DNA of 34,871 bases, taken from IMG/VR virus record IMGVR_UViG_2541047758_000018; one strand, given 5' to 3'. This DNA is from a virus (lineage: Duplodnaviria; Heunggongvirae; Uroviricota; Caudoviricetes). The position numbers and the translations under genes were made by a program. Shown here in pieces: positions 9,872-34,871 of this stretch (positions within the stretch are counted from its first letter, which is position 1; each line of letters opens with the position of its first letter). Under the pieces are notes generated by a model. It was given only the letters and a program-made list of their open reading frames with translations, was not told where the DNA came from and did not search any database.

Positions 9872-9896
9872 GCTTCTTCATGTGCGTAGAAAAGGT

Positions 9897-10327: not shown

Positions 10328-10361
10328 ATGCCACCAGCTACTGAGCGGTGGCATTTTTTTT
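10328..10361 (+). terminator. rho-independent terminator (ATGCCACC-N11-GGTGGCAT + T8)
   Basis: read directly; closes the primase/ori module. Confidence 0.7.
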
Positions 10362-10456
10362 GTGCTATTTGTTTCATATTTTGCAATTACGATGATGAAT
10401 ATTGCGATTTGTGAAACTATAATAACTGTTGTTTTATACAGTTCTAAGGGGGCGTT

Positions 10457-10618: not shown

Positions 10619-10634
10619 AAATGGATGGCATCGC

Positions 10635-11767: not shown

Positions 11768-13086
11768 TGGCGACATGGCAACTTGGCGGGCTGCCTAGCA
11801 TGGCACCGCAAAATGATAATGCTCCTCGTTCTTCCGTTCCTCAGCCTGTGCAGTATCAGCAGCAGCCAAACGTAGGTTTAATGGCGCTACAGGGGCTAAG
11901 AGGCGTTGCTGAGATTAATCAGCAGGCGCAAATTTCCCAGCAGTTAAAAGAATATCAGGCACGGTTGGGTAGTGCGGTAGCTAATAATGATCGTGTTGGC
12001 GTGCAGAAGTTAATGGCCCAGTATCCCCAGTTTATGGCTGATTCTCAAAAACAGATGGGATTCATTGATGCTGAGCAAAATCGACAGACCGCTGACGCTG
12101 CCATGAATCTGCGTCTTGCGTCACAAACTGGAGATCCACTGACCATGCAGAAGGCCATTCAGCAGGCAAATCCAGTATTACAGCGATTTGGTCTTCCTGC
12201 TGAAGAGGTTTATCAGTCTTGGCAGAATGACCCACAGGAATTCAACAGAATCACTGACCTCATCCACCTCCATGCTGATCCAAATAGTTACTTTAGTGTT
12301 CAAGAGAAGCAGCAAGGGCAGAGCATTGCACAGCAGAACGCAGATACATCCGCATATAATGCTCAGGTTAATGCGGAACAGGGTAATCGACGTCTCGATA
12401 TGGAGCAGTTCAAAGTCCTATCCGATAACCAACTACGCACGAGAGAAATGGTTCTGAAAGCACGACTTGGACGTGCTCAAAATGACATCGAGAGAGACAA
12501 GCTCAATGCTGAACTGAGCAAGGTACAGCAGGCGAAAGTGGAGAAGATGAACGATAAAATTAATACTGTTGCAGGTAACATCGACTCCTTGAACTCTGCG
12601 CTTGAAGTGGGTCATGAACTGGCGGGAATTGTAGGGAAACATCCTTCGGCCGTTACCCGCTCGCAGAACTATAACCCCCTGACGCTGGGGTTTGGATTCC
12701 TTCCTGATGTAGCAGAAGACACACGAAGCCTACGCGCCAAAGCTGATGAATACAACCTAAAGGTTATTCTGCCTAGCCTCAAAGGGACTTTTGGCTCTAA
12801 CCCAACCGAAGGGGAAAGGGCTGCCCTTATGCAATCTCAAAATGGCATTAAGTCAGCAACCAGCAATGAGGCATTTTTGCGAGAGTTGAATAAAGCGCAG
12901 GACGTAATTATTCGAATGCAGAAACGACAGATTGCCGGGCTCGGTATTCCTGTAACCAAATCTAAGGACGAAGAAACTGATACCAAAATGCTGTTGCAGG
13001 ATCCTTCACTAGTTAAGGATTATGTGACCGCACATGGCTATCTGCCGGAAAGTTACTATCAGGCAAAACTTAAGGGATGGCAATGA
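11767..13086 (+). CDS. Gln-rich phage ejection/internal virion protein-like, 439 aa
   Basis: ATGG overlap with the upstream gene. It is Q-rich with predicted coiled-coil. It is the middle gene of a three-gene injection-protein-like set. Confidence 0.55.
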   Translation: MATWQLGGLPSMAPQNDNAPRSSVPQPVQYQQQPNVGLMALQGLRGVAEINQQAQISQQLKEYQARLGSAVANNDRVGVQKLMAQYPQFMADSQKQMGFIDAEQNRQTADAAMNLRLASQTGDPLTMQKAIQQANPVLQRFGLPAEEVYQSWQNDPQEFNRITDLIHLHADPNSYFSVQEKQQGQSIAQQNADTSAYNAQVNAEQGNRRLDMEQFKVLSDNQLRTREMVLKARLGRAQNDIERDKLNAELSKVQQAKVEKMNDKINTVAGNIDSLNSALEVGHELAGIVGKHPSAVTRSQNYNPLTLGFGFLPDVAEDTRSLRAKADEYNLKVILPSLKGTFGSNPTEGERAALMQSQNGIKSATSNEAFLRELNKAQDVIIRMQKRQIAGLGIPVTKSKDEETDTKMLLQDPSLVKDYVTAHGYLPESYYQAKLKGWQ

Positions 13087-15414
13087 TGGCACAACTGACA
13101 GAAAAACAGAAAGCCTATTCCCGTCATCTCGATGAAAAATATGGTTTCCCATCAGGGACGATGGAAACATTAGTTGGCAATGAATCTAGTGGTAACGGAA
13201 GTGCCGAGTCACCGAAAGGAGCTAGAGGATTTGCTCAACTGATGCCCTCAGTAATGAGTGATGCTGGTTATCGTGGAACAGATCCGCGCTCACTGCCATT
13301 TGAAAAGCAAATGGATATCGCAGCAAACCATCTCAATAAAGGAATGAAGCGATTTGGTGATATAGGTATGGCATTGGCTGGGTATAATTCTGGCTATGCT
13401 CGTATTAATGCCGTCAGAAACGGTAAATCTACACTGCCAGATGAAACGGCTAATTACGTAAGTAAATTTGCAGATGCTGGAATAATCCCTGATGACAGTG
13501 AAATCTTGCAGTTTGCACAAACCAGTCAACATCGCAATCTTCAGCAGCCTGACTACTCAGAGCTTGATAAAGAAATCTCTCAGGTGGGAGATATTTCTGC
13601 ATGGGAAGCAAAACGTCAGCAATTTAAGAACATAGAAGCAGGACTACCAACAGCCAGTTCATGGGAGCAGAAAAGAGCTCAGTTTCTCGCCGATGAAAAT
13701 GCCGGGGAACCGCAGCAGCAAGTAGCCAAGTCTAACCTTAATCCTGAGATGGAATATCTTTCGCCAGGACTGAAAGCTGCGCCAGAGCAGATGGCCAGAG
13801 GGATTGCTAATATACCGTTTGATGTAATGGACGCAGGCGTGGGGGTAGTCAATGCGGCGCAATCAGCCGGAGCATGGGCAGCTCAGAAGCTTGGTGTGGG
13901 TGATGGCACATACACGCCCATATCACCTGTCTTTCGCCCAGTAGACCAACCTACAGATCCATACGCGCAGGCTGGTGAGCAGCTAGCACCTTACCTTATT
14001 ACAGGATTAGGTGCAGGAAAGGCAGCTACCGCAGCTTCTTCAGTTGCCAACGCTCCACGTGCTGAACGTGCGGCCACAAAGGTGGCTAGTATGTTGGCAG
14101 AAAACCTGCCAGGTACATTGGTGAACGCCCAAAAGAACGGGCAGATCAGCCCAGAAGACCTAGCAAAAGAGACAGGTATTGGCCTAGCAGGATCGCTAGG
14201 AGCACGCGCTTTAATAAAGAGCGGACAGACAGCCAGTGACGTAATGCGAGATGTATTGCGGAGTAATACAAATCAATCAGGCCATGTGTTAGGGGCAGCA
14301 AATACTCTGGAAACCGCCAATGATGTATCGAAAGCAGCGCGTTCTGCCGTAGGCCGAGAGCATATCGCATCGCAGGCATCAAACGTCAGAGATGATGTCG
14401 CTAAGGCGGCGAAAATCACTGGTATTAATATCAACACCCTGACGCCTGGAATGCGCTCAGGTAGTCGTGGAATTGCCCAAGCAGAAGGTGTTCTGGCATC
14501 AACTCCTGGGAATGTTCAGGATGCTCACCTTACGGCCTTCAATGAAATATCCTCAAAGTTGAATAAGCAGTTGTCTGATTTCGGTGCTGAGTCTGGAAGC
14601 GCATCAGAAAAAAGCGCAGCAATTAAAGAGCGCATCATCGCGAGCCTCAGTGATATGAAAACAGCAGAGAATATGGCATGGGCAGAACTGCGAAGCACGA
14701 TGCCACGCGAAAGGATGAAAATGAGTAATGGGATGGCTGTCGTCCAAGCAGAAAAAGCAGCCAATGTTCCACTCAGCCCGGAGATGAAACAGTTTCAGGC
14801 TGCCAACAACCAAGGTGGCGGCATAACCTTCGACGGGATGAAGGCATGGCGTGCTAAGTTTGCTGATGCTGAACAAGCAAACACCCGGGCAGGTAAGGCC
14901 AATGCCGCCCGGATTGCCGGAGAAATGCGCAGAGCTATCACTGATGACATGCGCATCATGGCTGAAAAAGGAAACTTCCTCACAGAATGGCAGAAAGCTA
15001 ACGATCTCTCTAAAAGTTACATTATCGCCAAACAAAATGCCGAATCTGTTTTTGGTCGAGATCTCGCATCAGACGCTATGGTAAGAAAAGGTGCCGATAC
15101 GCTTAAGGCATCCGCAAACACTGGAACGGGAGCTTTTCACCGTCTTATCTCCGCGCTGCCGGAAGCAGAACGCCAACCTGCAATAGCATCTATTCTTCAG
15201 CATGCTGTGGCGCAGGGAGAGAAGGGAGGAATCGGTGAAGAGTCAGGTATCCAGTATTTTGCCAAGCTCATGACCCAGCAGAATGTAAACGCCATCAGTC
15301 GTCATGCGCCAGATCTCGGTAGAATGATGAAAGAGTTCGGTGTACTCGCTAAAGCCAGTACCAGACCGCAGCGATACGTAGAGCGCACGGGAAGAACAAC
15401 TGAGGCTCTCAAAA
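13077..15414 (+). pseudogene. large ejection/internal virion protein with N-terminal SLT lytic transglycosylase domain, 3' truncated by IS911
   Basis: SLT family-1 motifs are present: NESSGN...SPKGARGFAQLMP and the ALAGYNSGYARI (AYNxG) motif. The reading frame runs into the IS911 inverted repeat at about 15415, so the listed stop at 15569 is IS-derived. Confidence 0.75.
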
Positions 15415-22074: not shown

Positions 22075-22509
22075 ATGAGTAAGAAGAAAATTTCTTTTGA
22101 AAATGAAGAGTTCATTACTTACCGGGCATTACTTCTGAGTATTGACTTTGTTAAAAAACTGGTTATAGAAATGTCTGATGAAGATTTAAATAAGGTTAAG
22201 GAAAACTTTGACATAGCTATTCAGCAACGTAATGAGCGAAAGGAAAATATGAAAGCTATCAAATCACTCATGGATGAACATGGTATATCTCTGGAAGATT
22301 TTTATTGTGAATTTGGCAAAAAATCACAGGCAGGCAGAAAAAGTGTGTCAGGAAGGCATAAATACGAGTATGACGATAACGGTAAAAGAATGTACTGGAA
22401 TGGACAAGGACGTCGGCCTAAGGCCATAGCAGAGGCTATAAAAGCCGGAGGTTCTCTTGATGATTTTCTTATATCTCAGGAAGTATCATCTGGTCCTGAT
22501 TATGAATAA
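22075..22509 (+). CDS. H-NS family nucleoid-associated protein paralog (xenogeneic silencer, Hfp/H-NSB-like)
   Basis: 144 aa. The C-terminus YEYDDNGKRMYWNGQGRRPKAIAEAIKAGGSLDDFLI matches the H-NS DNA-binding motif Y.Y.DENGE.KTWTGQGRTP..I..A...GKSLDDFLI. The N-terminus is a predicted coiled coil. Confidence 0.85.
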   Translation: MSKKKISFENEEFITYRALLLSIDFVKKLVIEMSDEDLNKVKENFDIAIQQRNERKENMKAIKSLMDEHGISLEDFYCEFGKKSQAGRKSVSGRHKYEYDDNGKRMYWNGQGRRPKAIAEAIKAGGSLDDFLISQEVSSGPDYE

Positions 22510-22925
22510 CAGCAATATATATTTTGATCTGTATTAATATCAAGAAATATATAGTAAACACTTCTCCGGAGTTGATATATTATCGGCAGGGAATGAAAAT
22601 GCCTGACTTCATGCTAATATATGGCAATAAAGATAAATGAGTTATACTGTAGAGTTATGAAATAACGATAGTGATAAGAGCCAGTCAGCGAGACTGATTG
22701 TTTTATCTGTACTGGCAGCAGGCAGTTTACCATGGCTTACTGCTTCAGCTTCTGAATCTGTGTTGATGATATTTATCTGTTTATAAGGCAAGGCTTGTCT
22801 CTGTGAGTTGGTAATCTTTATCCCGGGATAGCTTTTCTCTGTATTTTTAGTATAGCCAGTAATCGATTACTCCTGTATGCGCAAAAATATAGCAACTCAT
22901 CCATGGTAAACATGTCAGCTTTTAC

Positions 22926-23495
22926 CTACATATAGATAAATTCATATTTCACGATATACGACCCAATTTTATTAACACGAGCTGTTACCCATACACCTGT
23001 CATCCCCTGTTTATGGTGACTGCGCGGGAACTCTTTATTTGTACAAAGTTGTATCCATCTGGAAGTGTTTTGATCTTTCAACCAGAGTCCCGCTTCACAA
23101 TGTCCATACTTTCCTCTTGATGGTCCCGGAAAAACAACATCATATTCAGATTCATAGCTAATAACCTTATCCGGAAAAAGATAAACACAGACATCGTAAC
23201 AGTTCAGACTCAGTATAAATCCAAGACAAAATCCCCCCGTGAATGCATTTAATAAATACTTTAATGTTCTGTTAAAGGTGCGGATATAAAATGCATAAAT
23301 AAAAGAAAGAGAACCGGTGGTTATACCGGTGCAAAAATATGTTGTCCATTCAGGTACCGTATTTTGTAAAACAGTATAATGAGATATGGCGGATGCCCAC
23401 AACATATACCAGCACAAACCACCTGCAATAAGATATGTTATTGCTGTGGAAAACCATTTCCTGTATTTATTTTCAGGGTGATTGTTTTTGCCCAT
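22926..23495 (-). CDS. small membrane protein (3 predicted TM helices + about 85 aa C-terminal domain), downstream of dGTPase
   Basis: Hydrophobic segments: FSTAITYLIAGGLCWYMLWASAI, TYFCTGITTGSLSFIYAFYI and AFTGGFCLGFILSLNCYDVCVYLF. The ATG at 23495 is likely the true start (the track used TTG at 23498). It is 97 bp downstream of the dGTPase on the same strand. Confidence 0.55.
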   Translation of the reverse strand: MGKNNHPENKYRKWFSTAITYLIAGGLCWYMLWASAISHYTVLQNTVPEWTTYFCTGITTGSLSFIYAFYIRTFNRTLKYLLNAFTGGFCLGFILSLNCYDVCVYLFPDKVISYESEYDVVFPGPSRGKYGHCEAGLWLKDQNTSRWIQLCTNKEFPRSHHKQGMTGVWVTARVNKIGSYIVKYEFIYM

Positions 23496-23595
23496 CAACG
23501 CATTTCCAGAATATTTAAAAATAACCTGTCACCGAAACAGAATAAAGGCGCAATAACCATAACGGGAAAATATGCGCCTCTGGTAATCGACAGTG

Positions 23596-24828
23596 TTACT
23601 TCAGACAGTGAGTTTCCCATTCCTTGACTGCAAATGTATCCATCATACCTGAAATATAGTCAACCACTGCTCGTTTTTTGCTGATTTTAAATATATAGGA
23701 ATCTGGTTGGGGTAAGGTGAATTTAAGTTCAGGAGGCAGAAATTTATAATTCTCTCCTTCATTGTAAAAGTCATATAAATCCCTGATTATTTTATTTCCC
23801 CTGAACTCATAGGTGAGGATATTACGTTTTCGCATGATGACTTTAAAGAGAAGTTTTTTGAGCCCTTCGGATAACGCATTCAGTTTCCCGAATCCCAGTT
23901 CCTGAAAACCATTCAGGTTCGTTACTACAGAAATATCTGCAACGAGGCGATTGACAATATTTGAAGTTAACTCCTTGCGGAATATGATGGCAAATTCTTC
24001 TGAGGTTTTCAGTAAGTTAGCCTGAAAAGCGGTGTTTCTCGACTGAGTAACGATTTCCCTGAACTGTTCCCTCGCTCCCCGGAATTCGTCAGAAATCTGA
24101 AACTCATATTCAATATCTTCAATCGTGACCATGTTCCTGCTAAGGGCATCTTCCAGGTCATGCGCGGCATAGGCAATCTCATCCGCGAGATCCATTATCT
24201 GCGCATCAATCGTTTTCTCTCCGGGATTCAGATCGAGCTGATTTTCAGCAAGCAGGTTAATGTAAAAATAGTAATCATCATCATAAATGAACTTGCCGGC
24301 AGTAGCTGCAGCGCGGGGGATGGGATACTTAACAACCGAAAGTAAACTACGGTGAGTCAGATTTAATCCGTTGCAGTATGAAAATTTCTTCTCCAGTTTT
24401 CTCAGGATACGTAGCGCCTGTGCATTGCCTTCATAGCCGCCGATTTCTTCAGACAGTTCATTAAGCAGTTTTTCACCGGAATGACCGAAAGGAGGATTTC
24501 CGATGTCATGCGCCAGCGCTGCCAGTTCAACCACCACCGGGTTAACCAGTTTGAGGTCTGACGCGATACTTCGGGCGATCTGAGCAACCTCAAGACTGTG
24601 CGTTAATCTGTTTCTGTTGAATTTTTCAGGATCAATTTCAAAAAGTTGCATCTTTCCCTGCAGCCTGCGAAATGATGATGAATACAGAATACGCGCATAA
24701 TCCCGTTGATAATTATCCCGGCTTCTTGTTTCACCATCGGGGGACGGGTGCTCTCTGGTATCAGCAAGCGCACTGATAAGTTTTTGTTCCTGCTCTTGCG
24801 CAAATTCTTTTAATTCATTGCAGTACAT
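23596..24828 (-). CDS. dGTPase-family HD-domain deoxynucleoside triphosphate triphosphohydrolase (short form, about 410 aa)
   Basis: Contains NRNRLTHSLEVAQIARSIA and AHDIGNPPFGHSGE (cf. E. coli Dgt RTRLTHSMEVQQVGRYIA and MHDIGNPPFGHFGE), DLADEIAYAAHDLEDA, and an N-terminal RDYARILYSSSFRRLQGKMQ. The internal ATG at 24828 has an AAGGAAG SD. Confidence 0.85.
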   Translation of the reverse strand: MYCNELKEFAQEQEQKLISALADTREHPSPDGETRSRDNYQRDYARILYSSSFRRLQGKMQLFEIDPEKFNRNRLTHSLEVAQIARSIASDLKLVNPVVVELAALAHDIGNPPFGHSGEKLLNELSEEIGGYEGNAQALRILRKLEKKFSYCNGLNLTHRSLLSVVKYPIPRAAATAGKFIYDDDYYFYINLLAENQLDLNPGEKTIDAQIMDLADEIAYAAHDLEDALSRNMVTIEDIEYEFQISDEFRGAREQFREIVTQSRNTAFQANLLKTSEEFAIIFRKELTSNIVNRLVADISVVTNLNGFQELGFGKLNALSEGLKKLLFKVIMRKRNILTYEFRGNKIIRDLYDFYNEGENYKFLPPELKFTLPQPDSYIFKISKKRAVVDYISGMMDTFAVKEWETHCLK

Positions 24829-24978
24829 ATTTCTTCCTTTCTGGAGCATGTTACCAAATCAGAATACCGGATGAACAAAACTGGTGGCTACATCCTGTAG
24901 GGATTATGTATTAGTAAGCTCTGGCCATTAGTGCCATTTCAGGTTATGTGATCCTACTCACGTAATATGGACACAGGC

Positions 24979-25845
24979 CTAAGTGAGGTTCTGGTTTTCA
25001 AATTGTTCCGGACTGAGGCCGCCACACCAACTGTGCCGCCGCCACCGATTGTAATCACATTCGATATAATTAAACACCGTTGCCCGCATTATTTCCCGGC
25101 TGATAAAGTGTTCTCCATGGATACATTCCACTTTCAGCGAATGAAAGAAGCTTTCCACGCAGGCATTATCGTAGCAGCAACCTTTTGCGCTCATACTTCC
25201 ACGCAGATTATGCCGCTTCAGTTGCGCCTGATAATCTGCTGAACAGTACTGGCCTCCACGGTCCGTGTGAACGATAACGTTCCGGGGCCTCTTACGCCGC
25301 CACAGCGCCATCTGCAGGGCATCGCAGGCCAGTTGCGCCGTCATGCGTGGCGACATTGACCAGCCAATAACGGCACGTGACCACAGGTCAATGACCACTG
25401 CCAGATACAGCCAGCCTTCATCTGTACGTAAGTACGTGATGTCTCCTGCCCACTTCTGGTTCGGGCCACTGGCGTAAAAATCCTGCTCCAACAGATTTTC
25501 TGACACAGGCAGGCCGTGTGCGCGGTAGCTGACCGGGCTGAACTTCCGGGAGGCCTTTGCCCTCAGTCCCTGACGGCGCAGGCTTGCCGCCACGGTTTTT
25601 ACGTTAAAGGGGTAACCCTGAGCACGCAGTTCATCCGTCAGGCGTGGGGCACCGTAACGCTGTTTTGACCGGGTAAAAGCCGCGAGGACAACGCTGTCGC
25701 AGTGTTGGCGGAACTGCTGACGCGTGCTTATCCTTGTCCGCCGCTGACACCACGTATACCAGCCGCTGCGGGCCACCCGGAGCACGCGGCACATTGCTTT
25801 GATGCTGAACTCAGCCTGATGTTTTTCAATAAAGACATACTTCAT
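24979..25845 (-). CDS. insF: IS3 OrfB transposase (InsF-like, DDE)
   Basis: [32 protein letters not shown]...[26 protein letters not shown]...[10 protein letters not shown]... Confidence 0.85.
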
Positions 25846-26150
25846 TTCAGGCGCTTCGCGAAGTATGTCGCGGCCTTTTGGAGGATAGCCAGCTCTTCAT
25901 CCCGTTCTGCCAGCTGGCGTTTGAGACGTGCAATCTCGGTAGACATCTCCAGTTCACGTTCAGAAGACGTCTGCTGATTTTGCTGTTTACTGCGCCAGTT
26001 GTAGAGTTGTGATTCATACAGGCTGAGTTCACGGGCTGCGGCAGTAACACCGATGCGTTCAGCAAGCTTCAGGGCTTCACTGCGAAATTCAGGCGAATGC
26101 TGTTTACGGGGTTTTTTACTGGTTGATACTGTTTTTGTCATGTGAGTCAC
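25842..26150 (-). CDS. insE: IS3 OrfA transposase (InsE-like)
   Basis: [50 protein letters not shown]... Confidence 0.85.
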
Positions 26151-26297
26151 CTCTGACTGAGAGTTTACTCACTTAGCCGCGTGTCCACTATTGCTGGGTA
26201 AGATCACCCTGTGAACCATGTTGATATTGATACTATATTGACTATATGCCATACAGGTGGTAATGATTAGTTACTACCATACAGGAAAAGGTAGAAA

Positions 26298-27278
26298 ATG
26301 ACTCTTTTGGTAACGGCTGAGTGTGTTGACGATCTGATAAACGATGTTCATCAAGCTATCCTAGCGGATGGACTCAGTAACGATCCTACAAAAGGATCAA
26401 CTCTAGAGATTCTTGGTGCCTATCTTGTCCTTACCGACCCCCGCCGAAGAATAAGTAGAACAGAATCCCGAGGAAAACTAATTAGTTGCTTAGGTGAATT
26501 TCTGTGGTATCTCTCAGCTCAGAACGATCTTGAGTTTATAAAACACTTCATACCACGTTACGCTGAATCCGCTGAGTCAGATGGGAAAATACATGGTGGT
26601 TACGGGCCACGGTTGTTTAATATGCGTGGTTTATATAATCAGCTAAAAAATGTCATCAACCTTTTGCAGGAGAAAAAACCTACCAGACGTGCAGTAATAC
26701 AGCTTTTCGATGCCTCAGACTTGGTGCCCTCAAAAACTGAACAGCGAGAATACGTAGATATTCCTTGTACAATATCTATGCAGTTTATTGTCAGATGTGA
26801 AGAGCTGCATCTATTTGTTTGTATGCGTTCTAACGATGCCTTTATGGGGCTGCCTCATGATGTATTTGCGTTCACGATGCTACAGGAATTAGTTGCCCGC
26901 TTGATAGGATGCGAATTGGGTCACTATCATCACTTTGTATCCAGCCTACATCTCTATAAAAATGATTTAGAAAAAGTGAAGGCTCTTCAGAAAGAGGGGT
27001 TCATGAGCACCCTACCAGTCATGGGATCGATGCCTGAAATGCATTCCTTAGATGATATCTTACCCCTGCTTGAGGCAGAAAAAGCTCTTCGAGAGAATAA
27101 GGAATTTGATATTGACACTACTTCCTTGAATGACTACTGGAAGGATTTATTGCGTATATTAAAAATCCACTTTTTGTTACGTTCACATACACCCAACCAC
27201 AAAGGACTAGCCTTCCAAGAGTTGGCTGCAATGAAAAATCAGGAATATCGGTTTATTTTTGAAGGAAGACTACAATGA
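26298..27278 (+). CDS. thymidylate synthase-family enzyme (ThyA/dCMP-hydroxymethylase fold) with dCMP-type active-site signature
   Basis: Four motif matches support the TS fold. HGGYGPRLFNMRG matches TS GDLGPVYGFQWR. RRAVIQLFDASDL matches RRIIVSAWNPxDL. DIPCTISMQFIV matches the catalytic LPPCHALCQFYV. CMRSNDAFMGLPHDVFAFTML matches [21 protein letters not shown]. The specificity Asn of PFN is replaced by Asp (PHD), as in dCMP hydroxymethylases. Confidence 0.75.
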   Translation: MTLLVTAECVDDLINDVHQAILADGLSNDPTKGSTLEILGAYLVLTDPRRRISRTESRGKLISCLGEFLWYLSAQNDLEFIKHFIPRYAESAESDGKIHGGYGPRLFNMRGLYNQLKNVINLLQEKKPTRRAVIQLFDASDLVPSKTEQREYVDIPCTISMQFIVRCEELHLFVCMRSNDAFMGLPHDVFAFTMLQELVARLIGCELGHYHHFVSSLHLYKNDLEKVKALQKEGFMSTLPVMGSMPEMHSLDDILPLLEAEKALRENKEFDIDTTSLNDYWKDLLRILKIHFLLRSHTPNHKGLAFQELAAMKNQEYRFIFEGRLQ

Positions 27279-28219
27279 AAAGACATAATCAAATCAGTCA
27301 GCTGGTTAGTAATTTGCAAAATTTTAGCCGCAATGAACACAACCTAAATGGTCTAAGTTCTCCTGCCTGCTTTGATGTTTTAGCCTGTCAGATTATCGAC
27401 AGTATACGTCGTATACGCTATGTGGAAACTCTTGCATTACGGACCGATTATATGACTCCGTTACGAAAAGAGCCGAATTCTGATGTTTTTGATCCTCTCC
27501 GCGCTGCCTGCCTTTATCTTCGTGACAACAATTACGATGAAGCCTGCTGGCTGGTTTTCCTTGCCACACATTTCGGCAAGAGTAACAAAACCGGCTGGAT
27601 TTTGTGTCGAGATATATACAGTGGACTCGGTACACAAACGTGGACATGGGATACGATAACTGATGACTTTGCTGCTTTTGAACAATGGTTCGCCAGCGTC
27701 TCTGATGAGTTGACAGCTAACAGTAGCCTAAGACAATATGGTAACCATCGGAAATATGAAACGAAGAAATATCACTCTCGTCGTTCAATACCTGCGGTTT
27801 TTCGCTCTTACATCGGATTCATTGGTGCTACACACAGTCATGAGGCTAGGTTTGCAGAGGCCAAGAGCTTTTCATCTTCACCAGAATCTTTATTCGAACT
27901 ATTGTATTCAGGGCTAAATGCCGTGATCTCATTTGGACGAACCGCAAAATTTGATTACCTAACTATGCTCAAGAAAACGGGACTTCTGGATGTAGAGCCG
28001 GGTCATGCTTTTCTGAATGGAGCAACCGGGCCCCTTCAAGGAAGCCGGCTACTTTTCAGCAATAGCCGGACTGCTGGTGACACAATAGACGTATTGAATG
28101 AAAAACTAGCTGACCTTGCGGCAATTATTCCTGCACCCTACTTGAGAATGCAGGTTATTGAAGATGCGTTGTGCAACTGGCAGAAATCACCTGACCGTTA
28201 TGTCTATTTCGGCGGCTGA
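27275..28219 (+). CDS. unknown 314 aa partner protein, translationally coupled (ATGA) to TS-like gene
   Basis: No confident family. There is a weak helix-hairpin-helix-like segment ISFGRTAKFDYLTMLKKTGLLDV. It may be a DNA-binding/base-modifying or glycosylase-like protein. Confidence 0.55.
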   Translation: MKRHNQISQLVSNLQNFSRNEHNLNGLSSPACFDVLACQIIDSIRRIRYVETLALRTDYMTPLRKEPNSDVFDPLRAACLYLRDNNYDEACWLVFLATHFGKSNKTGWILCRDIYSGLGTQTWTWDTITDDFAAFEQWFASVSDELTANSSLRQYGNHRKYETKKYHSRRSIPAVFRSYIGFIGATHSHEARFAEAKSFSSSPESLFELLYSGLNAVISFGRTAKFDYLTMLKKTGLLDVEPGHAFLNGATGPLQGSRLLFSNSRTAGDTIDVLNEKLADLAAIIPAPYLRMQVIEDALCNWQKSPDRYVYFGG

Positions 28220-28221
28220 TA

Positions 28222-29304
28222 TCAGACGATATCTTCTTTACGGAATCTCACTTTAAACCGATTAAGGTGAGAAAAAGGTATATTACCTTCATGCTGCAAA
28301 TATCCCAGTACGATCCCTTTGGATACCCCCATTTTCCTAGCTAACCGGATGATCTCTTTCCAATGCCGGACACCATAGCGACTAAGTTGCTGCCGGTATT
28401 CTTCTGGGATAAGAACATCAACGGCAAATTTATCTGCTTCCTTTTCCTCTTCCGACGAAAGACTATCTTTACCTTCTACGCGAACTCGGACAGCTTCATG
28501 CAAGATGAGATGCCCAATCTCATGAAACAGCGTAAACCAAAAATGGTCATCGGTCAGATAACGGAAACTCATGACTAGGGTTGCGCGATCTGGTGTAAAA
28601 AAGCAGGTAGCACCACTTGCCCGACATCCCTTTGGCGTTGGCAACACAACGAGAGAAACTCCAGCAGTGGCGAGAAGGTCGCGAATGTAAGGGATAAAAA
28701 TCCTCATGTCGGGTTCATTTGTAGCTTTGCGCAGTTCTGGCAACAATGCTATCAGCACCTCTTTATCCCATACAGCACAGTTTTGGTTTGAGGTAAGTTG
28801 TGCAGCCCTAGTCAGCCACACCAAATCGGCCATAGGCTCGGTTGCCAGATTAAGAGATTTACGAAAAGCGACCAAAGGAGCATCTGACTGAATTTTATAA
28901 AAAAAATCATTGACGGAATTTATTCCGAAAAACGATAGGCAGTGCTGGAATTTACTTTCCCGAGTTGTAGTTTTGGGGATCCAACCAAACTCCATCATAT
29001 CACGTACAGGCAATGATTCGAGCCAATCATTATTCACTTTCTCGAGGTATCCAATTTGCTGGCGATAAGCGACTTCGCGCTTGATCCAGAAGTCTGTCGA
29101 TACGTTGAATAACTCCTCAAGCTTACAAGCCAGAGACTCATTGAGTCGGATTTTTCCTTCAAGAAGTTGCTGACCCCGGATAAGAGACAATCCAATCCTC
29201 TTACTCAGTTCTTCACCAGAAAGCCCATGTTCATCCATTAGATCTATAATTGTATCACCGGGTGGAGATACCCAGTCAGGCTGGAAGTCCTGCGTAACTA
29301 TCAT
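28222..29304 (-). CDS. HigA-like antitoxin/regulator: N-terminal XRE-family HTH fused to ImmA/IrrE (M78, HEIGH) metallopeptidase domain
   Basis: The N-terminus PGDTIIDLMDEHGLSGEELSKRIGLSLIRGQQLLEGKIRLNESLACKLEELFNVSTDFW is a HigA-type HTH. The C-terminus FHEIGHLILHE...EEEKEADKFAVDVLIP is an ImmA/IrrE zinc-peptidase motif. An ATGA overlap joins it to the upstream small gene. Confidence 0.75.
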   Translation of the reverse strand: MIVTQDFQPDWVSPPGDTIIDLMDEHGLSGEELSKRIGLSLIRGQQLLEGKIRLNESLACKLEELFNVSTDFWIKREVAYRQQIGYLEKVNNDWLESLPVRDMMEFGWIPKTTTRESKFQHCLSFFGINSVNDFFYKIQSDAPLVAFRKSLNLATEPMADLVWLTRAAQLTSNQNCAVWDKEVLIALLPELRKATNEPDMRIFIPYIRDLLATAGVSLVVLPTPKGCRASGATCFFTPDRATLVMSFRYLTDDHFWFTLFHEIGHLILHEAVRVRVEGKDSLSSEEEKEADKFAVDVLIPEEYRQQLSRYGVRHWKEIIRLARKMGVSKGIVLGYLQHEGNIPFSHLNRFKVRFRKEDIV

Positions 29305-29627
29305 TTCACGTCACCTATGAACACTAACCGTATCCGGCTAACTCGGGACCAGTTAATTGTATTATCTTGATTTTTGGGCTGAACTGTATTCCCACAGACA
29401 AATCCCATTTTTACATCACCGAGAATGGTAATTGTAATACACTCTTCCCCATCCTCAAAGCAGACCTCCGGCGAACCTACGGGCAACAGTAATATGTTGT
29501 CTGTCACGGAAAGATCGGAAAGTCGCGAGCGTAGTCTTGATGCCACTTTGTCACCAAAGATCTCATTTGCCTCATGCATACTCTCGCAAATAGTCCTTAA
29601 CTTCTTGCTTTGAAAGGTAATGAACAA
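29301..29627 (-). CDS. putative HigB/killer-protein (RelE-superfamily) toxin-like small protein, TTG start
   Basis: 108 aa. KKLRTICESMHEANEIFGDKVASRLRSRLSDL...ITITILGDVKMGF loosely fits the PF05015-like pattern K.L..LF...RL..L..A..L.DL...WSITV..NWRITF. The only in-frame start is TTG, which lowers confidence. Confidence 0.4.
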   Translation of the reverse strand: MFITFQSKKLRTICESMHEANEIFGDKVASRLRSRLSDLSVTDNILLLPVGSPEVCFEDGEECITITILGDVKMGFVCGNTVQPKNQDNTINWSRVSRIRLVFIGDVK

Positions 29628-29651
29628 AATTATCCACTTTTATTTTTCTTG

Positions 29652-29694
29652 GTTGCTACGTTTATAGCAAACTCAACGCTCATTCACAAAATGA
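29652..29694. promoter_or_regulatory. two palindromes in divergent intergenic region: TTGCTA(N6)TAGCAA and CTCATT(N5)AATGAG; candidate HigA/XRE operators
   Basis: Read directly. The region lies between the HigB-like gene and the MazG-like gene. Confidence 0.4.
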
Positions 29695-29770
29695 GATGTA
29701 GCGAATTAATGGACTCTGCACATATTAAATGTTAATGATGGACTTAAAATCACGGATTCGTAAGGGAAAC

Positions 29771-30034
29771 ATGAAAGGTAAACATCAAGACACTAAAGCC
29801 CTGTCTGACGTGCTAGCGGAAATGCAACGGCAGGATGCCAAATGGGGGGCAGACCGTAATCAAGATCCTTTTATCTGGGGAGCGATTCTCGGAGAAGAGG
29901 TGGGAGAATTTCATCAGGCTGTCCTCCATGATCGTTTTGGTGGTAAAGCAGCCGGTACCAGTAGGGAGGAAGCAGTACAAATTGCTGCTGTTGCACTGCA
30001 AATCATCGAATATTATGATCGCGTAATAGATTGA
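29771..30034 (+). CDS. small MazG-like all-alpha NTP pyrophosphohydrolase (87 aa)
   Basis: LSDVLAEMQRQDAKWG...FIWGAILGEEVGEFHQAVL carries the EExGE motif of MazG/HisE-type NTP-PPases common in phages (T4 dCTPase gp56 belongs to this superfamily). The internal ATG with an AAGGGA SD is preferred over the track start at 29729. Confidence 0.6.
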   Translation: MKGKHQDTKALSDVLAEMQRQDAKWGADRNQDPFIWGAILGEEVGEFHQAVLHDRFGGKAAGTSREEAVQIAAVALQIIEYYDRVID

Positions 30035-30336
30035 TAAATTAGAATTAATCAACTAAGAGTCTTTTACACGCGAAGATGAACTCTGGCAGCCATCTACCTT
30101 CGTGGGCCTGTAGAACACATCTAATTGCAATACTCCCAGTTAATCACTAACCAGCCTCTCCAGTAAGGCTGGTCGATTAGGTTTAATTAAACAGATATAA
30201 CAAGCAATTCACTTGGTATTACGCGGTTCACACAGACTTCTTTAGTTGTGTCATATCCTATAACTTTCAGAGGCTTATTTACGGTATTATCACGAACGGT
30301 GCAAAAGTGGCTCTTCCGCAACCTAGGTGGAGATTT

Positions 30337-30957
30337 TCATGCCAGTGGACTCATTACCCTCTGCCTAAGTAGTTCAAATCCGGCTCGACCATACATCAGA
30401 CGTTTCAGCATCTTCAGGCGATTTACATGACCTTCGACAACACCGTTACTCCAGCGGCTGCTGGTTGCCTCACATATAGCCGCGGCATCAGCTTCCATCC
30501 CCGCAGCCACGCGCCGAAGTTCTGCTGAACCGTTTTCGTGGACTCGAGTGAACCAACTGCTTAGATTTGATTTATTTGGGGTTTTCAGAATACGGTAGAA
30601 CTCAAGTACTAGTTGCTGCGCTATTTTCAGCGCCGGTTCTTTTTCACACATCAGACTAATAAATCGGGAAGCATAATTTTCTTCACCCCTGATTATTATC
30701 CAGGGCATCAACCAGCGGCTTACCCGGGACACTGAAGGAAGTCTGGCGGCAGTAGTAACTGGTGGGTTCCAGCCTTTACGCCATTTGGCAACAGCATCCC
30801 TGACGATGGTTTCACTGCCTGTAACCCCCGGCCACCATTTCCCGCCATATCCAGTCGCTGGTGTGCTGAATTGGTCATGTATGAAGGAAGATATCAATGG
30901 TGGTATCTCCCTTTCAAAAGGAAGTGAAAAGCTTGATGCCTGCTGCCAGGCAATCAA
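30337..30957 (-). pseudogene. ISL3-family transposase C-terminal fragment (remnant); ISL3-like part roughly 30337-30730
   Basis: The C-terminus WSNGVVEGHVNRLKMLKRLMYGRAGFELLRQRV matches the conserved ISL3 transposase end (WSNGxxEGxxNRLKxLKRxMYGRAxFELLRxRV). The N-terminal three quarters of the transposase are absent. Confidence 0.65.
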
Positions 30958-31454: not shown

Positions 31455-34400
31455 TTGATGGAGCAGTCTCTCAATTTTGAAATGTTGCGCAGCCAGTGGC
31501 CGGAACTGGCTGAACTCGCGTGTATGGCGGAACGCTATGTTCACTCCGATCCGGAAAGTTGTCTGGTCAAGCTGCGCAACTACACTGAATTGATGGTGCG
31601 CTGGTTGTATCGTCAGGAGCGGTTGCCGGAAGGTATTAAGGCTAATCTTTACGATTTAATGAATGCTGATGTCTTTACCAGCATGATGCCGGAAGCCATC
31701 ATCATGAAAATGGATGCGCTGCGTATCCATGGCAACCGTGCCGCGCACGGCGGACGTATCAAAGCTAAAGATACTTACTGGCTGCTCAAAGAAGCGTATT
31801 TGTTGGGAATTTGGCTGTATGTTCGCTACGCCCACGGTAATGTTGATGACTGCCCCAAATTTACACTCCCTCCATTAACACAATCTTCAGGTCGTGCAGA
31901 TGAAAAACGTCTGGAAGATGCAATCAGGGCTCAGGATGAAAGCCGTGAGCGCGAACTGGCGCTGCAACGCGCACTACAGCAAGAACAGGAAAAGGCCGAA
32001 CACCTCACTCAACGCCTGAATGAAGCCAGAGCGCGTAACCAGCATGTTGCCGATATTCTCTCTATTGATGAAGCGGAAACCCGCCGTCGCCTGATTGACT
32101 CTCGCCTGCTTGCTGCTGACTGGAATGTAGGCGAAGGCCTTAAAAATACCGATCAGGTTACGCAGGAACATCCCGTTAAAGAACAACCTACCGCGACCGG
32201 AGACGGTTATGCGGACTATGTCTTGTGGGATGAGGCACACAAACCGCTGGCGGTGGTGGAAGCAAAAAAAACCAGCGTCAATGCCGAGCAAGGACGAATT
32301 CAGGCCCGGCTGTATGCAGACTGGCTGGAAAAAGAATACGGCCAGCGTCCGATCATCTTCTACACCAACGGCTATGATATCTGGCTGTGGGATGACCATA
32401 AAACTCATGGTTATCCCCCGCGTCGGGTGTTTGGCTTCTACAGCAAGGAAAGCCTGCAATATCTTATTCAACAGCGTGAAACCCGTCTTCCGCTGAACAG
32501 TGTGCCGCACGTAAAAGATAACGAAGGTAAGGCCGTTGCCGGACGTTTGTACCAGCTTGAAACCATTGCCCGTGTCAGCGAGCGGTTTACCAACAAATAC
32601 CGGCAATCGCTAATTGTTCAGGCTACGGGTACAGGCAAAACCCGCGTGGCAATAGCGCTAAGCAAACTGATGATTGATGCCCGCTGGGTAAAACGCGTCC
32701 TGTTTCTTTGCGACCGCAAGGAACTACGTAAACAGGCGGCGAATGCCTTTAATCAATTCACCAATGAGCCGCTGTATGTGGTCGGGAAATCGAAAAAAGC
32801 AGACAGGCAGAATGCTAGGATCTACATCGCCACCTATCCTGGTATGATGAAAATCATGGACCATTTCGATGTTGGTTATTTCGATTTGATCATCGCCGAT
32901 GAATCCCATCGCTCTATCTACAACGTTTACGGCGATCTGTTTAAGTATTTTGATGCCCTCCAGATTGGCCTGACGGCCACGCCGATTGACATGGTGAGTA
33001 AAACCACTTTCGGCCTGTTTGGTTGTGAAGGACGTATTCCTACCGCCAACTACAGCCTGGAAGATGCCATCGCCGATAACAATCTGGTTCCCTATGAGGT
33101 TGTCACGCACACCACAGAATTCCTGCGCGAAGGCATCAAACGGGAGAAATTAAGCGACGCACAAATCCGCGAGCTGGAAGAACAAGGCATAGATCCCAAT
33201 ACGCTGGAGTTTGATGGCAAGGCGCTGGATGAGGCGATCTACAACAAAGACACCAACCGCTATATCCTGCGTAACCTGATGGAAAATGGCCTGAAAGATC
33301 GGGACGGCCAGTTGCCAGGTAAAACCATCATTTTCGCCCGTAACCACAAACACGCGCTGCTGTTGAATGAATTATTCGACGATATGTACCCGCAGTTTGC
33401 CGGGCGCTTCTGCCAGGTCATCGACAATTACGATCCCCGCGCCGAGCAACTGATTGATGATTTTAAAGGGCTGGATGAAAGCACCAACAAAGAGCTGACC
33501 ATCGCTATCTCCGTTGACATGCTCGATACCGGTATTGATGTCCCGGAAATTGTGAATCTGGTCTTTGCCAAACCGGTCAAATCAAAAGTGAAGTTCTGGC
33601 AGATGATTGGCCGTGGTACGCGCCTCTGTCCGGGGTTGTACGGTTACGACGATAACGGCAAACCTCTGGATAAACAGAAATTCCGCATTTTCGATCACTG
33701 GGGCAATTTTGAGTATCACGAACTGCATACCGAAGAGGCCGAAGTCACAGCGACAAAATCGCTTGCACAAAAACGCTTCGAAGCGTGGGTTATGCTGGGG
33801 GCCGCTGCGCAACGTAAATTCGACAAACAGGCGGTGGATTTAGTTGCTCACCAGCTACGCGAGCAAATCAATGCACTGGATGAAAAGTCGATTGCCGTCC
33901 AGGAAAAGTGGCATCAAAAAGCGCAGTACAGCGATGAAAAAGTGCTGCGCCAGCTTTCCCCGAAAACACAGCAGGATTTGCTATCTGTCCTGGCCCCGCT
34001 GATGCAGTGGCTGGACGTGCGCGGGCAAAGCGACGCTATGCGCTTTGATATGGATATTCTGGCGGCGCAAACTGCCCGTTATACCAACCCGGAAGAGCTG
34101 GATGTGCTCTGGCCGGTCATCGTCGAAAAAGTGGAGCGCCTGCCGCCGCATTTGGCGCAAGTCCAACAGCAAGGACCGCGGATCAATCAGCTTCGTGATT
34201 TAGGCTGGTGGAAGCAGGCCAGCCTGGAAGAGCTGGAAGATATCCGCATTCATCTGCGCGGCATCATGCACCTGATGGAAAAAGACGCGACGCCGAAATT
34301 TGGTTCGATACAGGTGGATATTACCGAAGATGCGAACCTGATTCAGACGGAAAACCGTAAAACCAACATCCGCTCGATTGACTTCAAACTCTATCGCCAG

Positions 34401-34871
34401 CAGGTGCAGGGAGCGCTGGAGCCGCTGTTCCAGCAAAATCCGGTGCTGAAGAAAATCCGCAACGGCGAGCCTGTGACGCAAAGCGAGCTGGATGAACTGG
34501 CTAAACTGGTGCTGATCCAGAACCCTAACGTTGATATCCGGGCACTGAAAGAGTTCTACCCGCAGGCGACCGCCAGCCTGGATAAACTATTGCGTACCAT
34601 CATCGGGATGGACAGCGACGCGGTGGAAGTGCGCTTTGCTCAGTTCGCCGCTGATAACAGCCTGACCAGCCAGCAATTGCGCTTCCTGTCATTGCTGAAA
34701 AACCACATTCGCGATTACGGCACCATTGAAATGCGGCAGCTCTTTGAACAGCCTTTTACGCATATCCACAACGAAGGCGTTACCGGTGTGTTCCCTGATA
34801 TAGAACAGATCGCCCGCCTACAAAAGATAGTCGAAGAGCTGGGTGTTGTGACCGACGCAGCAACGGTATAA
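31455..34871 (+). CDS. hsdR: type I restriction enzyme R subunit (HsdR), 1138 aa, ends at window edge
   Basis: The N-terminal nuclease domain reads GYADYVLWDEAHKPLAVVEAKKTSV (cf. EcoKI ADYVLFVGLKPIAVVEAKR). SF2 helicase motifs IVQATGTGKTRVAIAL, LIIADESHRS and GLTATP are present. An EcoKI-like DUF4145 N-terminus is present. The true start is the TTG at 31455 or the ATG 3 nt later. Confidence 0.9.
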   Translation: MMEQSLNFEMLRSQWPELAELACMAERYVHSDPESCLVKLRNYTELMVRWLYRQERLPEGIKANLYDLMNADVFTSMMPEAIIMKMDALRIHGNRAAHGGRIKAKDTYWLLKEAYLLGIWLYVRYAHGNVDDCPKFTLPPLTQSSGRADEKRLEDAIRAQDESRERELALQRALQQEQEKAEHLTQRLNEARARNQHVADILSIDEAETRRRLIDSRLLAADWNVGEGLKNTDQVTQEHPVKEQPTATGDGYADYVLWDEAHKPLAVVEAKKTSVNAEQGRIQARLYADWLEKEYGQRPIIFYTNGYDIWLWDDHKTHGYPPRRVFGFYSKESLQYLIQQRETRLPLNSVPHVKDNEGKAVAGRLYQLETIARVSERFTNKYRQSLIVQATGTGKTRVAIALSKLMIDARWVKRVLFLCDRKELRKQAANAFNQFTNEPLYVVGKSKKADRQNARIYIATYPGMMKIMDHFDVGYFDLIIADESHRSIYNVYGDLFKYFDALQIGLTATPIDMVSKTTFGLFGCEGRIPTANYSLEDAIADNNLVPYEVVTHTTEFLREGIKREKLSDAQIRELEEQGIDPNTLEFDGKALDEAIYNKDTNRYILRNLMENGLKDRDGQLPGKTIIFARNHKHALLLNELFDDMYPQFAGRFCQVIDNYDPRAEQLIDDFKGLDESTNKELTIAISVDMLDTGIDVPEIVNLVFAKPVKSKVKFWQMIGRGTRLCPGLYGYDDNGKPLDKQKFRIFDHWGNFEYHELHTEEAEVTATKSLAQKRFEAWVMLGAAAQRKFDKQAVDLVAHQLREQINALDEKSIAVQEKWHQKAQYSDEKVLRQLSPKTQQDLLSVLAPLMQWLDVRGQSDAMRFDMDILAAQTARYTNPEELDVLWPVIVEKVERLPPHLAQVQQQGPRINQLRDLGWWKQASLEELEDIRIHLRGIMHLMEKDATPKFGSIQVDITEDANLIQTENRKTNIRSIDFKLYRQQVQGALEPLFQQNPVLKKIRNGEPVTQSELDELAKLVLIQNPNVDIRALKEFYPQATASLDKLLRTIIGMDSDAVEVRFAQFAADNSLTSQQLRFLSLLKNHIRDYGTIEMRQLFEQPFTHIHNEGVTGVFPDIEQIARLQKIVEELGVVTDAATV

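Follow-up and report, generated by a model that had tools for sequence, protein, structure and literature searches.

A mobile cassette that pairs a predicted dCMP hydroxymethylase with a clade 3 aGPT-Pplase, probably placed beside a dGTPase gene by IS3 activity in Escherichia coli

Introduction

When three enzymes of deoxynucleotide metabolism are encoded within 8 kb of DNA, do they act together, or have they only come to lie side by side? This question is raised by positions 22075-30034 of a stretch of 34,871 nucleotides (the window, which here means the whole stretch at its full length) that is catalogued as a virus of the Caudoviricetes (IMG/VR record IMGVR_UViG_2541047758_000018). A preliminary description of the sequence had recognized in this interval a dGTPase, an enzyme with thymidylate synthase (TS) fold and a MazG-like nucleoside triphosphate pyrophosphatase (NTP-PPase), and had proposed that they form a thematic cluster, either as a composite defence island that depletes or modifies deoxynucleoside triphosphates (dNTPs), or as a captured phage cassette for nucleotide metabolism, with a resemblance to the pathway of T-even phages. 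The segment is a chromosomal island of Escherichia coli, and the interval is 100% identical to several RefSeq chromosomes. According to our analysis, it probably consists of two unrelated modules that were juxtaposed by the activity of the insertion sequence (IS) element IS3 inside an E. coli defence island. The first module would comprise positions 22075-24828, with the dGTPase, an H-NS-like gene and a gene for a small membrane protein, and the second positions 26207-30222, which represent a self-contained mobile cassette.

Results and Discussion

A conserved cassette that is independent of the dGTPase

The gene order was derived from the listing of open reading frames (ORFs) and from family scans with Pfam, PADLOC and NCBIfam (Table 1). 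The three enzymes named in the preliminary description are present and intact where they had been placed, and three further genes between the TS-fold gene and the MazG-like gene had been overlooked: aGPT3, which encodes an aGPT-Pplase of clade 3, XRE-M78, which encodes an Xre-type helix-turn-helix (HTH) protein with an M78 metallopeptidase domain, and p108, which encodes a protein of 108 residues. An alignment of aGPT3 homologues was searched against one genome per species (185,579 species), and relatives were found in about 420 of them. For 104 loci, i.e. 80 genome loci with 10-kb flanks and 24 contigs of IMG/VR, the window proteins were searched against the ORFs in all six frames. The TS-fold gene lies beside aGPT3 at 100 of these loci, XRE-M78 is found at 102 and p108 at 92 (76, 79 and 74, respectively, among the 80 genome loci). 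Order and orientation are constant, with the TS-fold gene and aGPT3 in one direction, converging on XRE-M78, which is preceded by p108 on the opposite strand. This arrangement is found in Proteobacteria, Acidobacteriota, Planctomycetota, Bacteroidota, Chloroflexota, Myxococcota, Verrucomicrobiota, Actinobacteria and Saccharibacteria, and genes beyond the cassette are unrelated from locus to locus. All five cassette genes, the MazG-like gene included, are under purifying selection, with ratios of non-synonymous to synonymous substitution rates (dN/dS) of 0.05-0.24. The cassette occurs on islands, on plasmids and in some proviruses, and in case of the enteric bacteria it adjoins integrases and type I restriction-modification (RM) systems. 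A type I RM system is found beside it in three independent enterobacterial contexts, namely downstream in the window (31455-34871) and in E. coli ET450 (locus L113, 11834-17330), and upstream in Kluyvera and Yokenella (loci L002 and L007, 5852-8675). The cassette is almost certainly a self-contained mobile unit with a four-gene universal core, to which the MazG-like gene is added in Enterobacterales.

The dGTPase does not belong to this unit, as it is encoded at none of the 104 cassette loci. Among 5,426 complete E. coli genomes, at least 80% of the interval is covered in 186, at identities of at least 99%; counted by parts, 344 genomes have the dGTPase block, 237 the cassette and 186 the whole interval. 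At least 107 carriers of the dGTPase block therefore lack the cassette. Conversely, E. coli ET450 has a cassette of 79% identity, including the MazG-like gene, directly after an integrase at the leuX site and beside another type I RM system, and it has no dGTPase; cassettes without dGTPase are found in other genera as well. As the co-occurrence in E. coli traces back to one clonal island with at least 99% identity, it is not independent evidence of a linkage. The proposed three-gene cluster hence dissolves: the dGTPase is distributed independently, whereas the TS-fold and MazG-like genes are indeed linked, within Enterobacterales only.

The boundary between the two parts is sharp. DNA homology between the window and the cassettes of Kluyvera and Yokenella starts at 26206-26208, which is the exact end of IS3, and extends to 30213-30222, a short way beyond the MazG-like gene. 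In these two genera, hsdM/hsdS are found upstream of the cassette and an integrase downstream. The block shared with Citrobacter, Enterobacter and Raoultella extends from 26235 to 30026. The inverted repeats of IS3 lie at 24948-24987 and 26168-26207, and the triplets that flank the element differ (ATG and CCC, in 24946-24951 and 26204-26209), so that there is no 3-bp target-site duplication, which suggests an IS-mediated rearrangement rather than a simple insertion. E. coli ABU 83972 has the same block of H-NS gene, hypothetical gene, dGTPase and IS3, has no cassette, and its block adjoins the fec operon. In that genome, the same dGTPase-IS3 junction runs into IS1 and the fec operon. IS3-mediated recombination, it is suggested, shuffles whatever adjoins the dGTPase. 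That the cassette is a unit with these boundaries and does not depend on the dGTPase is, in our view, highly reliable.

Could the dGTPase, the TS-fold enzyme and the MazG-like protein nevertheless act together, be it in a T-even-style pathway or as one unit for dNTP depletion? All three act on deoxynucleotide pools, and at least 186 genomes of E. coli have them together in a segment of 8 kb; moreover, the TS-fold enzyme resembles gp42 in its cytosine specificity, and a dCTPase with MazG fold would be the analogue of T4 gp56. However, such a joint pathway is refuted by the distribution, since the dGTPase is missing at all cassette loci and each block occurs without the other. In addition, the homology breaks off precisely at an IS3 that lacks a target duplication, the co-occurrence in E. 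coli is clonal, and there is no role for a dGTPase in a cytosine pathway. We therefore consider a joint action of the three enzymes extremely improbable. The idea of a composite defence island holds in the broad sense that a dGTPase of a validated family lies next to a predicted defence cassette, but not in the sense of one cooperating unit.

The distribution also bears on the second idea, a captured phage cassette. It is from phages that hydroxymethylases with TS fold, aGPT-Pplases and MazG-like proteins are best known, P2-like prophages encode paralogues of the MazG-like protein after gpA, and 24 IMG/VR contigs contain the cassette, which could indicate a recent capture and mere phage debris that has no function for the host. 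Against this, a tblastn search for aGPT3 gave no match in 50,697 phage genomes, and among 2.9 million IMG/VR contigs it was found in those 24 only; ten plasmids matched. The approximately 420 bacterial species that carry it, the strong purifying selection and the invariant catalytic residues do not agree with debris either, nor does the pair of p108 and XRE-M78, which is not phage-like and always part of the cassette. The cassette is cargo of cells or mobile genetic elements and not a phage replication pathway, and there is next to no likelihood that it represents functionless phage remnants.

Table 1. Features of the analysed interval and its right flank (positions refer to the window)
Feature	Position	Strand	Basis or remark
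H-NS family protein	22075-22509	+	Pfam Histone_HNS 2e-12, HNS_N 2.5e-7
Hypothetical membrane-like protein, 190 aa	22926-23498	-	annotated beside the dGTPase in several genomes
dGTPase, HD-domain, 410 aa	23596-24828	-	ATG at 24828; ORF reaches 24849
IS3, complete, 1258 bp	24949-26206	-	inverted repeats at both ends
Promoter-like element of the TS/aGPT operon	26238-26267	+	TTGACT, N18, GGTGGTAATGAT
TS-fold gene, first cassette gene	26298-27278	+	Pfam Thymidylat_synt 5e-25
aGPT-Pplase clade 3 (aGPT3)	27275-28219	+	Pfam PF18746 4.8e-90, PF18724 9e-59
XRE-HTH + M78 (ImmA/IrrE) metallopeptidase (XRE-M78)	28222-29304	-	Pfam HTH_3, Peptidase_M78
p108, 108 aa, TTG start, putatively HigB/RelE-like	29301-29627	-	
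MazG-like protein, 87 aa	29771-30034	+	predicted fold
ISL3-family transposase fragment	30337-30957	-	Pfam DDE_Tnp_ISL3, NCBIfam transpos_ISL3; C-terminal part only
Type I restriction R subunit (hsdR)	31455-34871, runs off the window	+	neighbouring defence system

The TS-fold enzyme

The nearest solved relative of the TS-fold protein is the CMP 5-hydroxymethylase MilA (E-value 1.6e-41, with the C-terminal helical extension included), whereas the best true TS reaches 1e-18. The catalytic Cys157 of the P-C motif, Arg177-Ser178, Asp180, Asp188 and His218 are invariant in all 73 family members that were compared, and Arg130 and Tyr220 are each conserved in 72. The cytosine-specifying residue Asp188 aligns with the Asn of TS (Asn177 in E. 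coli TS) and with the Asp of MilA, and the TS fold, the catalytic Cys and an Asp at this position are common to the window enzyme, MilA and T4 gp42. T4 dCMP hydroxymethylase and TS have a Ser and an Arg where MilA has Ala176 and Lys133, and the A176S/K133R exchange in MilA results in a preference for dCMP (PMC5175136). With Ser178 and Arg130, the window enzyme agrees with the former two and not with MilA, i.e. it is of the deoxy type and not of the ribo type. These residues suggest that it is a dCMP 5-hydroxymethylase, and its early characterization as dCMP-type enzyme is right. By analogy, its nearest relative MilA and its aGPT-Pplase partner, and only these, speak for a hydroxymethyl rather than a methyl product. 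Selection on the gene is strong (dN/dS 0.06-0.08). Unlike MilA and T4 gp42, the enzyme is not accompanied by a MilB glycosidase, a gp1 kinase or a glucosyltransferase. The cassette thereby also differs from the 5-hydroxymethylcytosine pathway of T-even phages (gp42, gp56, gp1 and glucosyltransferases), as well as by its aGPT3, which is absent from the phage collection.

The promoter boxes upstream of the TS-fold gene (a -35 and an extended -10 element) are kept in five enterobacterial loci, including Pectobacterium with an overall identity of 65%. In a promoter and terminator scan of the cassette, matches were no more numerous than in shuffled sequence, and for these boxes it is the cross-species conservation alone that is informative. 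Two further elements were noticed. The 9-mer CCATACAGG occurs twice upstream of the TS-fold gene (26249-26257 and 26277-26285), 28 bp apart, and this repeat is kept in close relatives only. Between p108 and the MazG-like gene, at 29653-29670, there is a palindrome TTGCTA-N6-TAGCAA, the right half of which, TTATAGCAAA, is kept in five enterobacterial loci. Both the repeat and the palindrome might serve as operators to which the XRE protein binds.

The clade 3 aGPT-Pplase

The assignment of aGPT3 is clear, as PF18746 matches residues 34-313 with 302 bits at a cut-off of 25, and PF18724 matches with 199 bits. The ATG of aGPT3 overlaps the stop codon of the TS-fold gene (ATGA, a 4-bp overlap), and the two genes are translationally coupled. 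The motif E296-D297-x-x-C300-N-W-Q-K is invariant in 80 of 80 sequences. The clades of the aGPT-Pplase family were reportedly defined by Iyer et al. in 2013. Members of clade 2 are amino-acid:DNA transferases (AADTs), in which an essential Cys, aided by a neighbouring Glu, attacks C6 of phosphorylated 5-hydroxymethyluracil (5-hmU) in DNA; an exocyclic methylene is formed and captured by an amino acid, and the predicted fold is similar to that of DNA glycosylases (PMC8989533). By analogy, and not by alignment, E296, D297 and C300 of aGPT3 resemble this Cys and Glu.

The closest known parallel for the two enzymes would be the thymidine hypermodification of phages, which uses a dUMP hydroxymethylase, a 5-hmU DNA kinase and an aGPT-Pplase of clade 2 (Lee et al. 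2018, 2021, PMC8989533). In both cases, a TS-fold hydroxymethylase is paired with an enzyme of the aGPT-Pplase family, and the conserved Cys with its neighbouring acidic residue in the cassette enzyme resembles the Cys and Glu of clade 2. The differences are that the cassette enzyme belongs to clade 3 and is found in cellular hosts (0 of 50,697 phages), that the cassette lacks a 5-hmU DNA kinase, a pyridoxal phosphate-dependent enzyme and a radical S-adenosylmethionine enzyme, and that its TS-fold enzyme has the cytosine-type Asp instead of the uracil-type Asn. No kinase was found among the four to five conserved cassette genes by Pfam and by comparison of the loci, and an optional fifth gene had no kinase match either.

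This fifth gene, which encodes about 266 residues, lies between the TS-fold gene and aGPT3 at 19 of the 80 genome loci (e.g. L016, 9174-9974, and L017, 1391-2188). It has no Pfam match and no meaningful match in the PDB, and a marginal match to a retron reverse transcriptase (E = 0.004) was rejected as chance. Its invariant motifs GLNPS, CHLDLIPYAT and GFNHNIQSS are, by eye only, similar to the uracil-DNA glycosylase superfamily, and if the protein were truly of this kind, this would hint at an action on DNA.

Does the cassette then modify the DNA of its own host or of a mobile element? Cytosine hypermodification could in principle be an epigenetic mark that protects from restriction or that works together with the adjoining type I RM system. 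The relatives of aGPT3 modify DNA, a DNA-glycosylase-like fold has been predicted for them in the literature, and the cassette has type I RM systems beside it in the window, in Kluyvera, in Yokenella and in ET450 and travels on islands, plasmids and some proviruses, all of which would agree with such a role. However, neither a kinase for dNMPs or DNA nor a nuclease that requires the modification or is sensitive to it is conserved with the cassette, and the flanks beyond the four to five genes are unrelated. Furthermore, the HigB-like/XRE-M78 pair, which resembles a toxin-antitoxin (TA) system, fits a triggered system better, and phages, the usual home of protective modifications, do not contain aGPT3 in any of the 50,697 genomes. 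A self-modification function is for these reasons unlikely.

The p108/XRE-M78 pair and its relation to PD-lambda-2

XRE-M78 matches the PADLOC model PD-Lambda-2_B with an E-value of 3.3e-30 over residues 15-341, which is nearly its full length, and contains the HEIGH motif. The gene converges on aGPT3 and ends 2 bp from it, and in other taxa the two operons overlap. On the other side, p108 overlaps the start of XRE-M78 by 4 bp. p108 is under purifying selection (dN/dS 0.16-0.24). It is missing from the annotation of near-identical E. coli genomes in RefSeq by the NCBI Prokaryotic Genome Annotation Pipeline (PGAP), it is annotated in ET450, and homologues in Citrobacter and Serratia are named "killer suppression protein HigA" by their sources. 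Nothing relevant was found when 30 members of the p108 family were compared with the PADLOC models, and there was no match to PD-Lambda-2_A. In its position and size, p108 agrees with that component, and it might be HigB-like, which is a weak assignment.

PD-lambda-2 is a validated defence system of E. coli. Its first gene is HigB-like, and its second gene encodes an Xre HTH-peptidase whose toxicity is seen in the absence of the first gene and relieved by it (PMC9519451). The third gene encodes an accessory factor that is related to the P4 antitoxin and required for defence (PMC9519451). The system resides on mobile islands and acts by an abortive-infection-type defence (Vassallo et al. 2022, PMC9519451). 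The cassette pair has the same order and the same overlap, with a small, putatively HigB-like gene followed by an Xre-HTH/M78 gene. It differs in three aspects: p108 does not match PD-Lambda-2_A, the match to component B is at the level of homologues and not of orthologues, and component C is missing, as there is no third co-directional gene beside p108 and XRE-M78. Instead, the convergent operon of the TS-fold gene and aGPT3 is invariably linked. The cassette may be likened to a hybrid in which a TA-like module of PD-lambda-2 type is joined to the initial part of phage pathways for pyrimidine hypermodification. It fits no one known system, as it has no PD-lambda-2 component C and no DNA kinase, is of cytosine and not of uracil type, and is not phage-borne.

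A TA-like pair on a mobile unit could also simply serve addiction. The cassette would then be a selfish module, with the two enzymes as metabolic cargo or as producers of a secreted or free small molecule derived from 5-hydroxymethylcytosine, such as a nucleoside antibiotic of the MilA/MilB type. This would be in line with the facts that the closest characterized relative of the TS-fold enzyme is MilA from the biosynthesis of mildiomycin, that proteins of the PD-lambda-2_B type are toxic alone and neutralized by component A, and that the cassette occurs on plasmids. But Ser178 and Arg130 are of the deoxy (dCMP) type and not of the CMP type of MilA, and a conserved MilB-like N-glycosidase, tailoring enzyme or exporter is not found. 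The strict four-gene synteny across phyla speaks for a joint function of the two enzymes with the TA-like pair, and the neighbours of the cassette are defence genes and not biosynthetic clusters. That the cassette is an addiction module whose cargo serves metabolism or makes an antibiotic is hence quite unlikely.

A possible immune function of the cassette

Which function remains plausible for such a combination of genes? The cassette has already been predicted in a machine-learning screen. Its TS protein is identical to WP_000174035.1, which is listed as "Predicted novel defense gene" with a log-odds score of 7.6 in Table S10 of the DefensePredictor study (Science 2026, PMC13092281), and the same study highlights aGPT-Pplase and MazG as predicted, unvalidated defence domains. 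Furthermore, defence genes are neighbours of the cassette in other taxa, including a CBASS cyclase (1e-194), KwaB (8e-118), a DRT reverse transcriptase (2e-105), GajB, SduA, AriAB and type I RM systems. A role in conflict or defence is, in our view, likely.

That TS-fold enzymes can belong to anti-phage systems is experimentally proven by DS-4 ("NTTI"), which was validated in the DefensePredictor study and consists of a TS, a dNMP kinase, a 5-hydroxymethyldeoxyuridine DNA kinase, a TIR protein and NMAD; its mechanism is not discussed in the text of that study (PMC13092281). DS-4 is similarly an E. coli defence operon in which a TS-fold gene comes first and domains of hypermodification pathways follow. 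However, genes for an aGPT-Pplase, an XRE-M78 protein and a HigB-like protein are all missing from it, and its TS (WP_087900468.1, 361 aa) is another protein. CMoRE, which was considered as well, is unrelated to the cassette.

From the gene content, the conserved active sites, the fixed synteny, the mobility and the independence from the dGTPase, all of which are observed, we infer a defence role, the substrates and an order of events as follows. The HigB-like p108 and XRE-M78 would function as TA-like sensor and regulator, and upon phage attack this pair would release or induce the two enzymes. The TS-fold enzyme would then convert dCMP to 5-hydroxymethyl-dCMP with the use of methylene-tetrahydrofolate. 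In aGPT3, Cys300 would attack C6 of the 5-substituted pyrimidine, with Glu296 or Asp297 as acid, and the enzyme would either add a nucleophile or destroy the nucleotide. As a result, the dCTP/dCMP pool would be drained, or a nucleotide that poisons replication would be made, or both. In enterics, the MazG-like enzyme might supply dCMP from dCTP, as T4 gp56 does, or might sanitize modified dNTPs for the host, as DCTPP1 does. In essence, this would be a kinase-independent cellular hypermodification of cytosine that acts as immune effector: dCMP would be converted to a bulky 5-substituted deoxycytidine nucleotide (e.g. an aminoacyl-methyl derivative), or would alternatively be cleaved, the reaction would be triggered by a PD-lambda-2-like HigB/XRE-M78 sensor, and phage DNA synthesis would be poisoned or starved. 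We put this forward as a tentative proposal that may well turn out to be wrong.

Several points weigh against it. The characterized clade 2 enzymes depend on a 5-hmU DNA kinase; the cassette has no conserved kinase, and its TS-fold enzyme is of the cytosine type. To our knowledge, E. coli has no kinase for 5-hydroxymethyl-dCMP, and an incorporation of the product into DNA is therefore uncertain. As to the sensor, the assignment of p108 to HigB is weak, with PF05015 being matched weakly by 2 of 30 members; phmmer with the single sequence and a profile search gave no match for p108 in the PDB, and its AlphaFold2 (AF2) model reaches, with a shallow alignment, a mean predicted local distance difference test (pLDDT) score of 44. 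In the PADLOC scan of the segment, the dGTPase and PD-Lambda-2_B were matched, but a complete PD-lambda-2 system was not called, as components A and C were unmatched among the segment proteins. The census of defence neighbours was made without a matched background control and is dominated by redundant models of type I S subunits, and the genes listed above are therefore examples and do not represent a rate. The defence role as such is based on context and on the machine-learning prediction, and in the searchable literature no experiment on the cassette, and neither a validation nor a mechanism, was found.

The MazG-like protein

The MazG-like protein has no Pfam or NCBIfam match even at E-values up to 10, and no sequence match in the PDB. 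Its AF2 model is all-alpha with three long helices and has a pLDDT of 92. Top matches of this model in Foldseek are YpjD, AF_0060, HisE, the MazG proteins of Bacillus and Thermotoga (TM MazG) and DCTPP1, with RS21-C6 also among them; probabilities are 0.9-1.0 and E-values 0.03-3, which is weak, as expected for a helical protein of 87 residues. The metal-binding motifs EExxE and ExxD of such enzymes are present as EEVGE and E..D, and in 26 homologues E43, E46 and E67 are invariant and E42, E80 and D83 are conserved in at least 90%. Homologues are called MazG-like or "NTP pyrophosphatase" by their sources. Together, the predicted fold and the motifs support the proposed assignment as MazG-like NTP-PPase at the level of the superfamily only; there is no match to a family hidden Markov model (HMM).

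The gene is found at 11 of the 104 cassette loci, all of them in Enterobacterales, is divergently transcribed, has a dN/dS of about 0.05, and falls within the block of shared homology, the end of which is at 30026-30222. It represents an accessory component of the enterobacterial cassette form. With T4 gp56 and DCTPP1-type dCTP pyrophosphatases the protein shares a small, presumably all-alpha fold and acidic motifs, and the position of the gene beside that of a dCMP-type hydroxymethylase follows the logic of T4. It differs from them by the structural E-values of 0.03-3 and the missing HMM match, and by the fact that paralogues occur independently in phages. Such paralogues, some of them fused to DUF7415 (PF24187), are encoded in P2-like prophages of Klebsiella and Photorhabdus (loci L108-L112), directly after gpA and before the portal and terminase genes, and one homologue is encoded by fHe-Yen9-04, a jumbo phage of Yersinia. 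Phages thus carry this small family independently of the cassette.

The dGTPase block

The dGTPase matches the PADLOC dGTPase model with an E-value of 1.4e-109, both the HD and the HD_assoc domains of Pfam, and TIGR01353 with 317 bits, which is above the cut-off of 152. The model of curated anti-phage dGTPases, NF041026, is matched in two stretches with 284.7 bits, which is below its cut-off of 400. Judged by these scores, the protein is a relative within the family and not an equivalent of the anti-phage dGTPase curated by NCBIfam. Anti-phage dGTPases are reportedly a dNTP-depletion defence, as described by Tal et al. in 2022. Like these, the window protein is an HD-domain protein of 410 residues that forms a single-gene system on an island; unlike these, it stays under the strict NCBIfam cut-off (285 versus 400 bits). 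It is a stand-alone anti-phage module by its family, and is predicted to deplete dGTP.

The gene carries the label of a pseudogene in the PGAP annotation of near-identical genomes, and this was rejected for the window copy after direct comparison: its product and the intact protein of ABU 83972 (WP_000271620.1) are identical in 408 of 410 residues, and as this alignment is gapless, the reading frame is intact in the window. In otherwise "100%" identical RefSeq genomes (NZ_CP022664.1 and NZ_CM188749.1, compared with 23596-24849 of the window), the gene has a deletion of one nucleotide and is annotated as "frameshifted". The gene is being lost in part of the lineage. The H-NS gene and the gene for the 190-residue protein belong to the dGTPase side and not to the cassette, and the latter protein had no significant family match in the Pfam, PADLOC and NCBIfam scans.

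Genomic setting

The setting that had been described for the interval was borne out, as the H-NS gene, IS3, the ISL3 fragment and hsdR were all confirmed. The ISL3 fragment, which PGAP labels as a partial, frameshifted transposase, is the right edge of the cassette block. At the hsdR locus, the PGAP annotation lists a DEAD/DEAH helicase and, after it, the M and S subunits of a type I system, and in the E. coli island a gene for an AAA ATPase comes directly after hsdS. Positions 1-15414 of the window are 98.6% identical to an element of other E. coli strains with genes for an integrase, a TOPRIM-DUF927 primase, a DNA-ejection protein and a lytic transglycosylase, which is a prophage or satellite. 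The first 22 kb of the window are contiguous in no complete genome of the collection.

Conclusions

What does this mean for the three enzymes that raised the question? The cluster as it was first described is largely a coincidence made by IS activity, in which a known single-gene defence has come to lie beside the cassette. It is the cassette that deserves attention, as it couples a TA-like defence module of a validated type with two enzymes that are otherwise known from the hypermodification of phage DNA, here in a cytosine-type form and without an activating kinase. As a by-product, the comparison exposed a conserved gene of 108 codons that is missing from the E. coli annotation in RefSeq. 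If the cassette is an immune system, it would represent a new effector chemistry beside dNTP depletion, viperins and DS-4, it would provide the first function for clade 3 of the aGPT-Pplases, and its enzymes might be useful for a site-specific C5 derivatization of cytosine nucleotides. And if the proposed hypermodification effector should prove true, bacteria would turn the phages' own DNA hypermodification chemistry against them.

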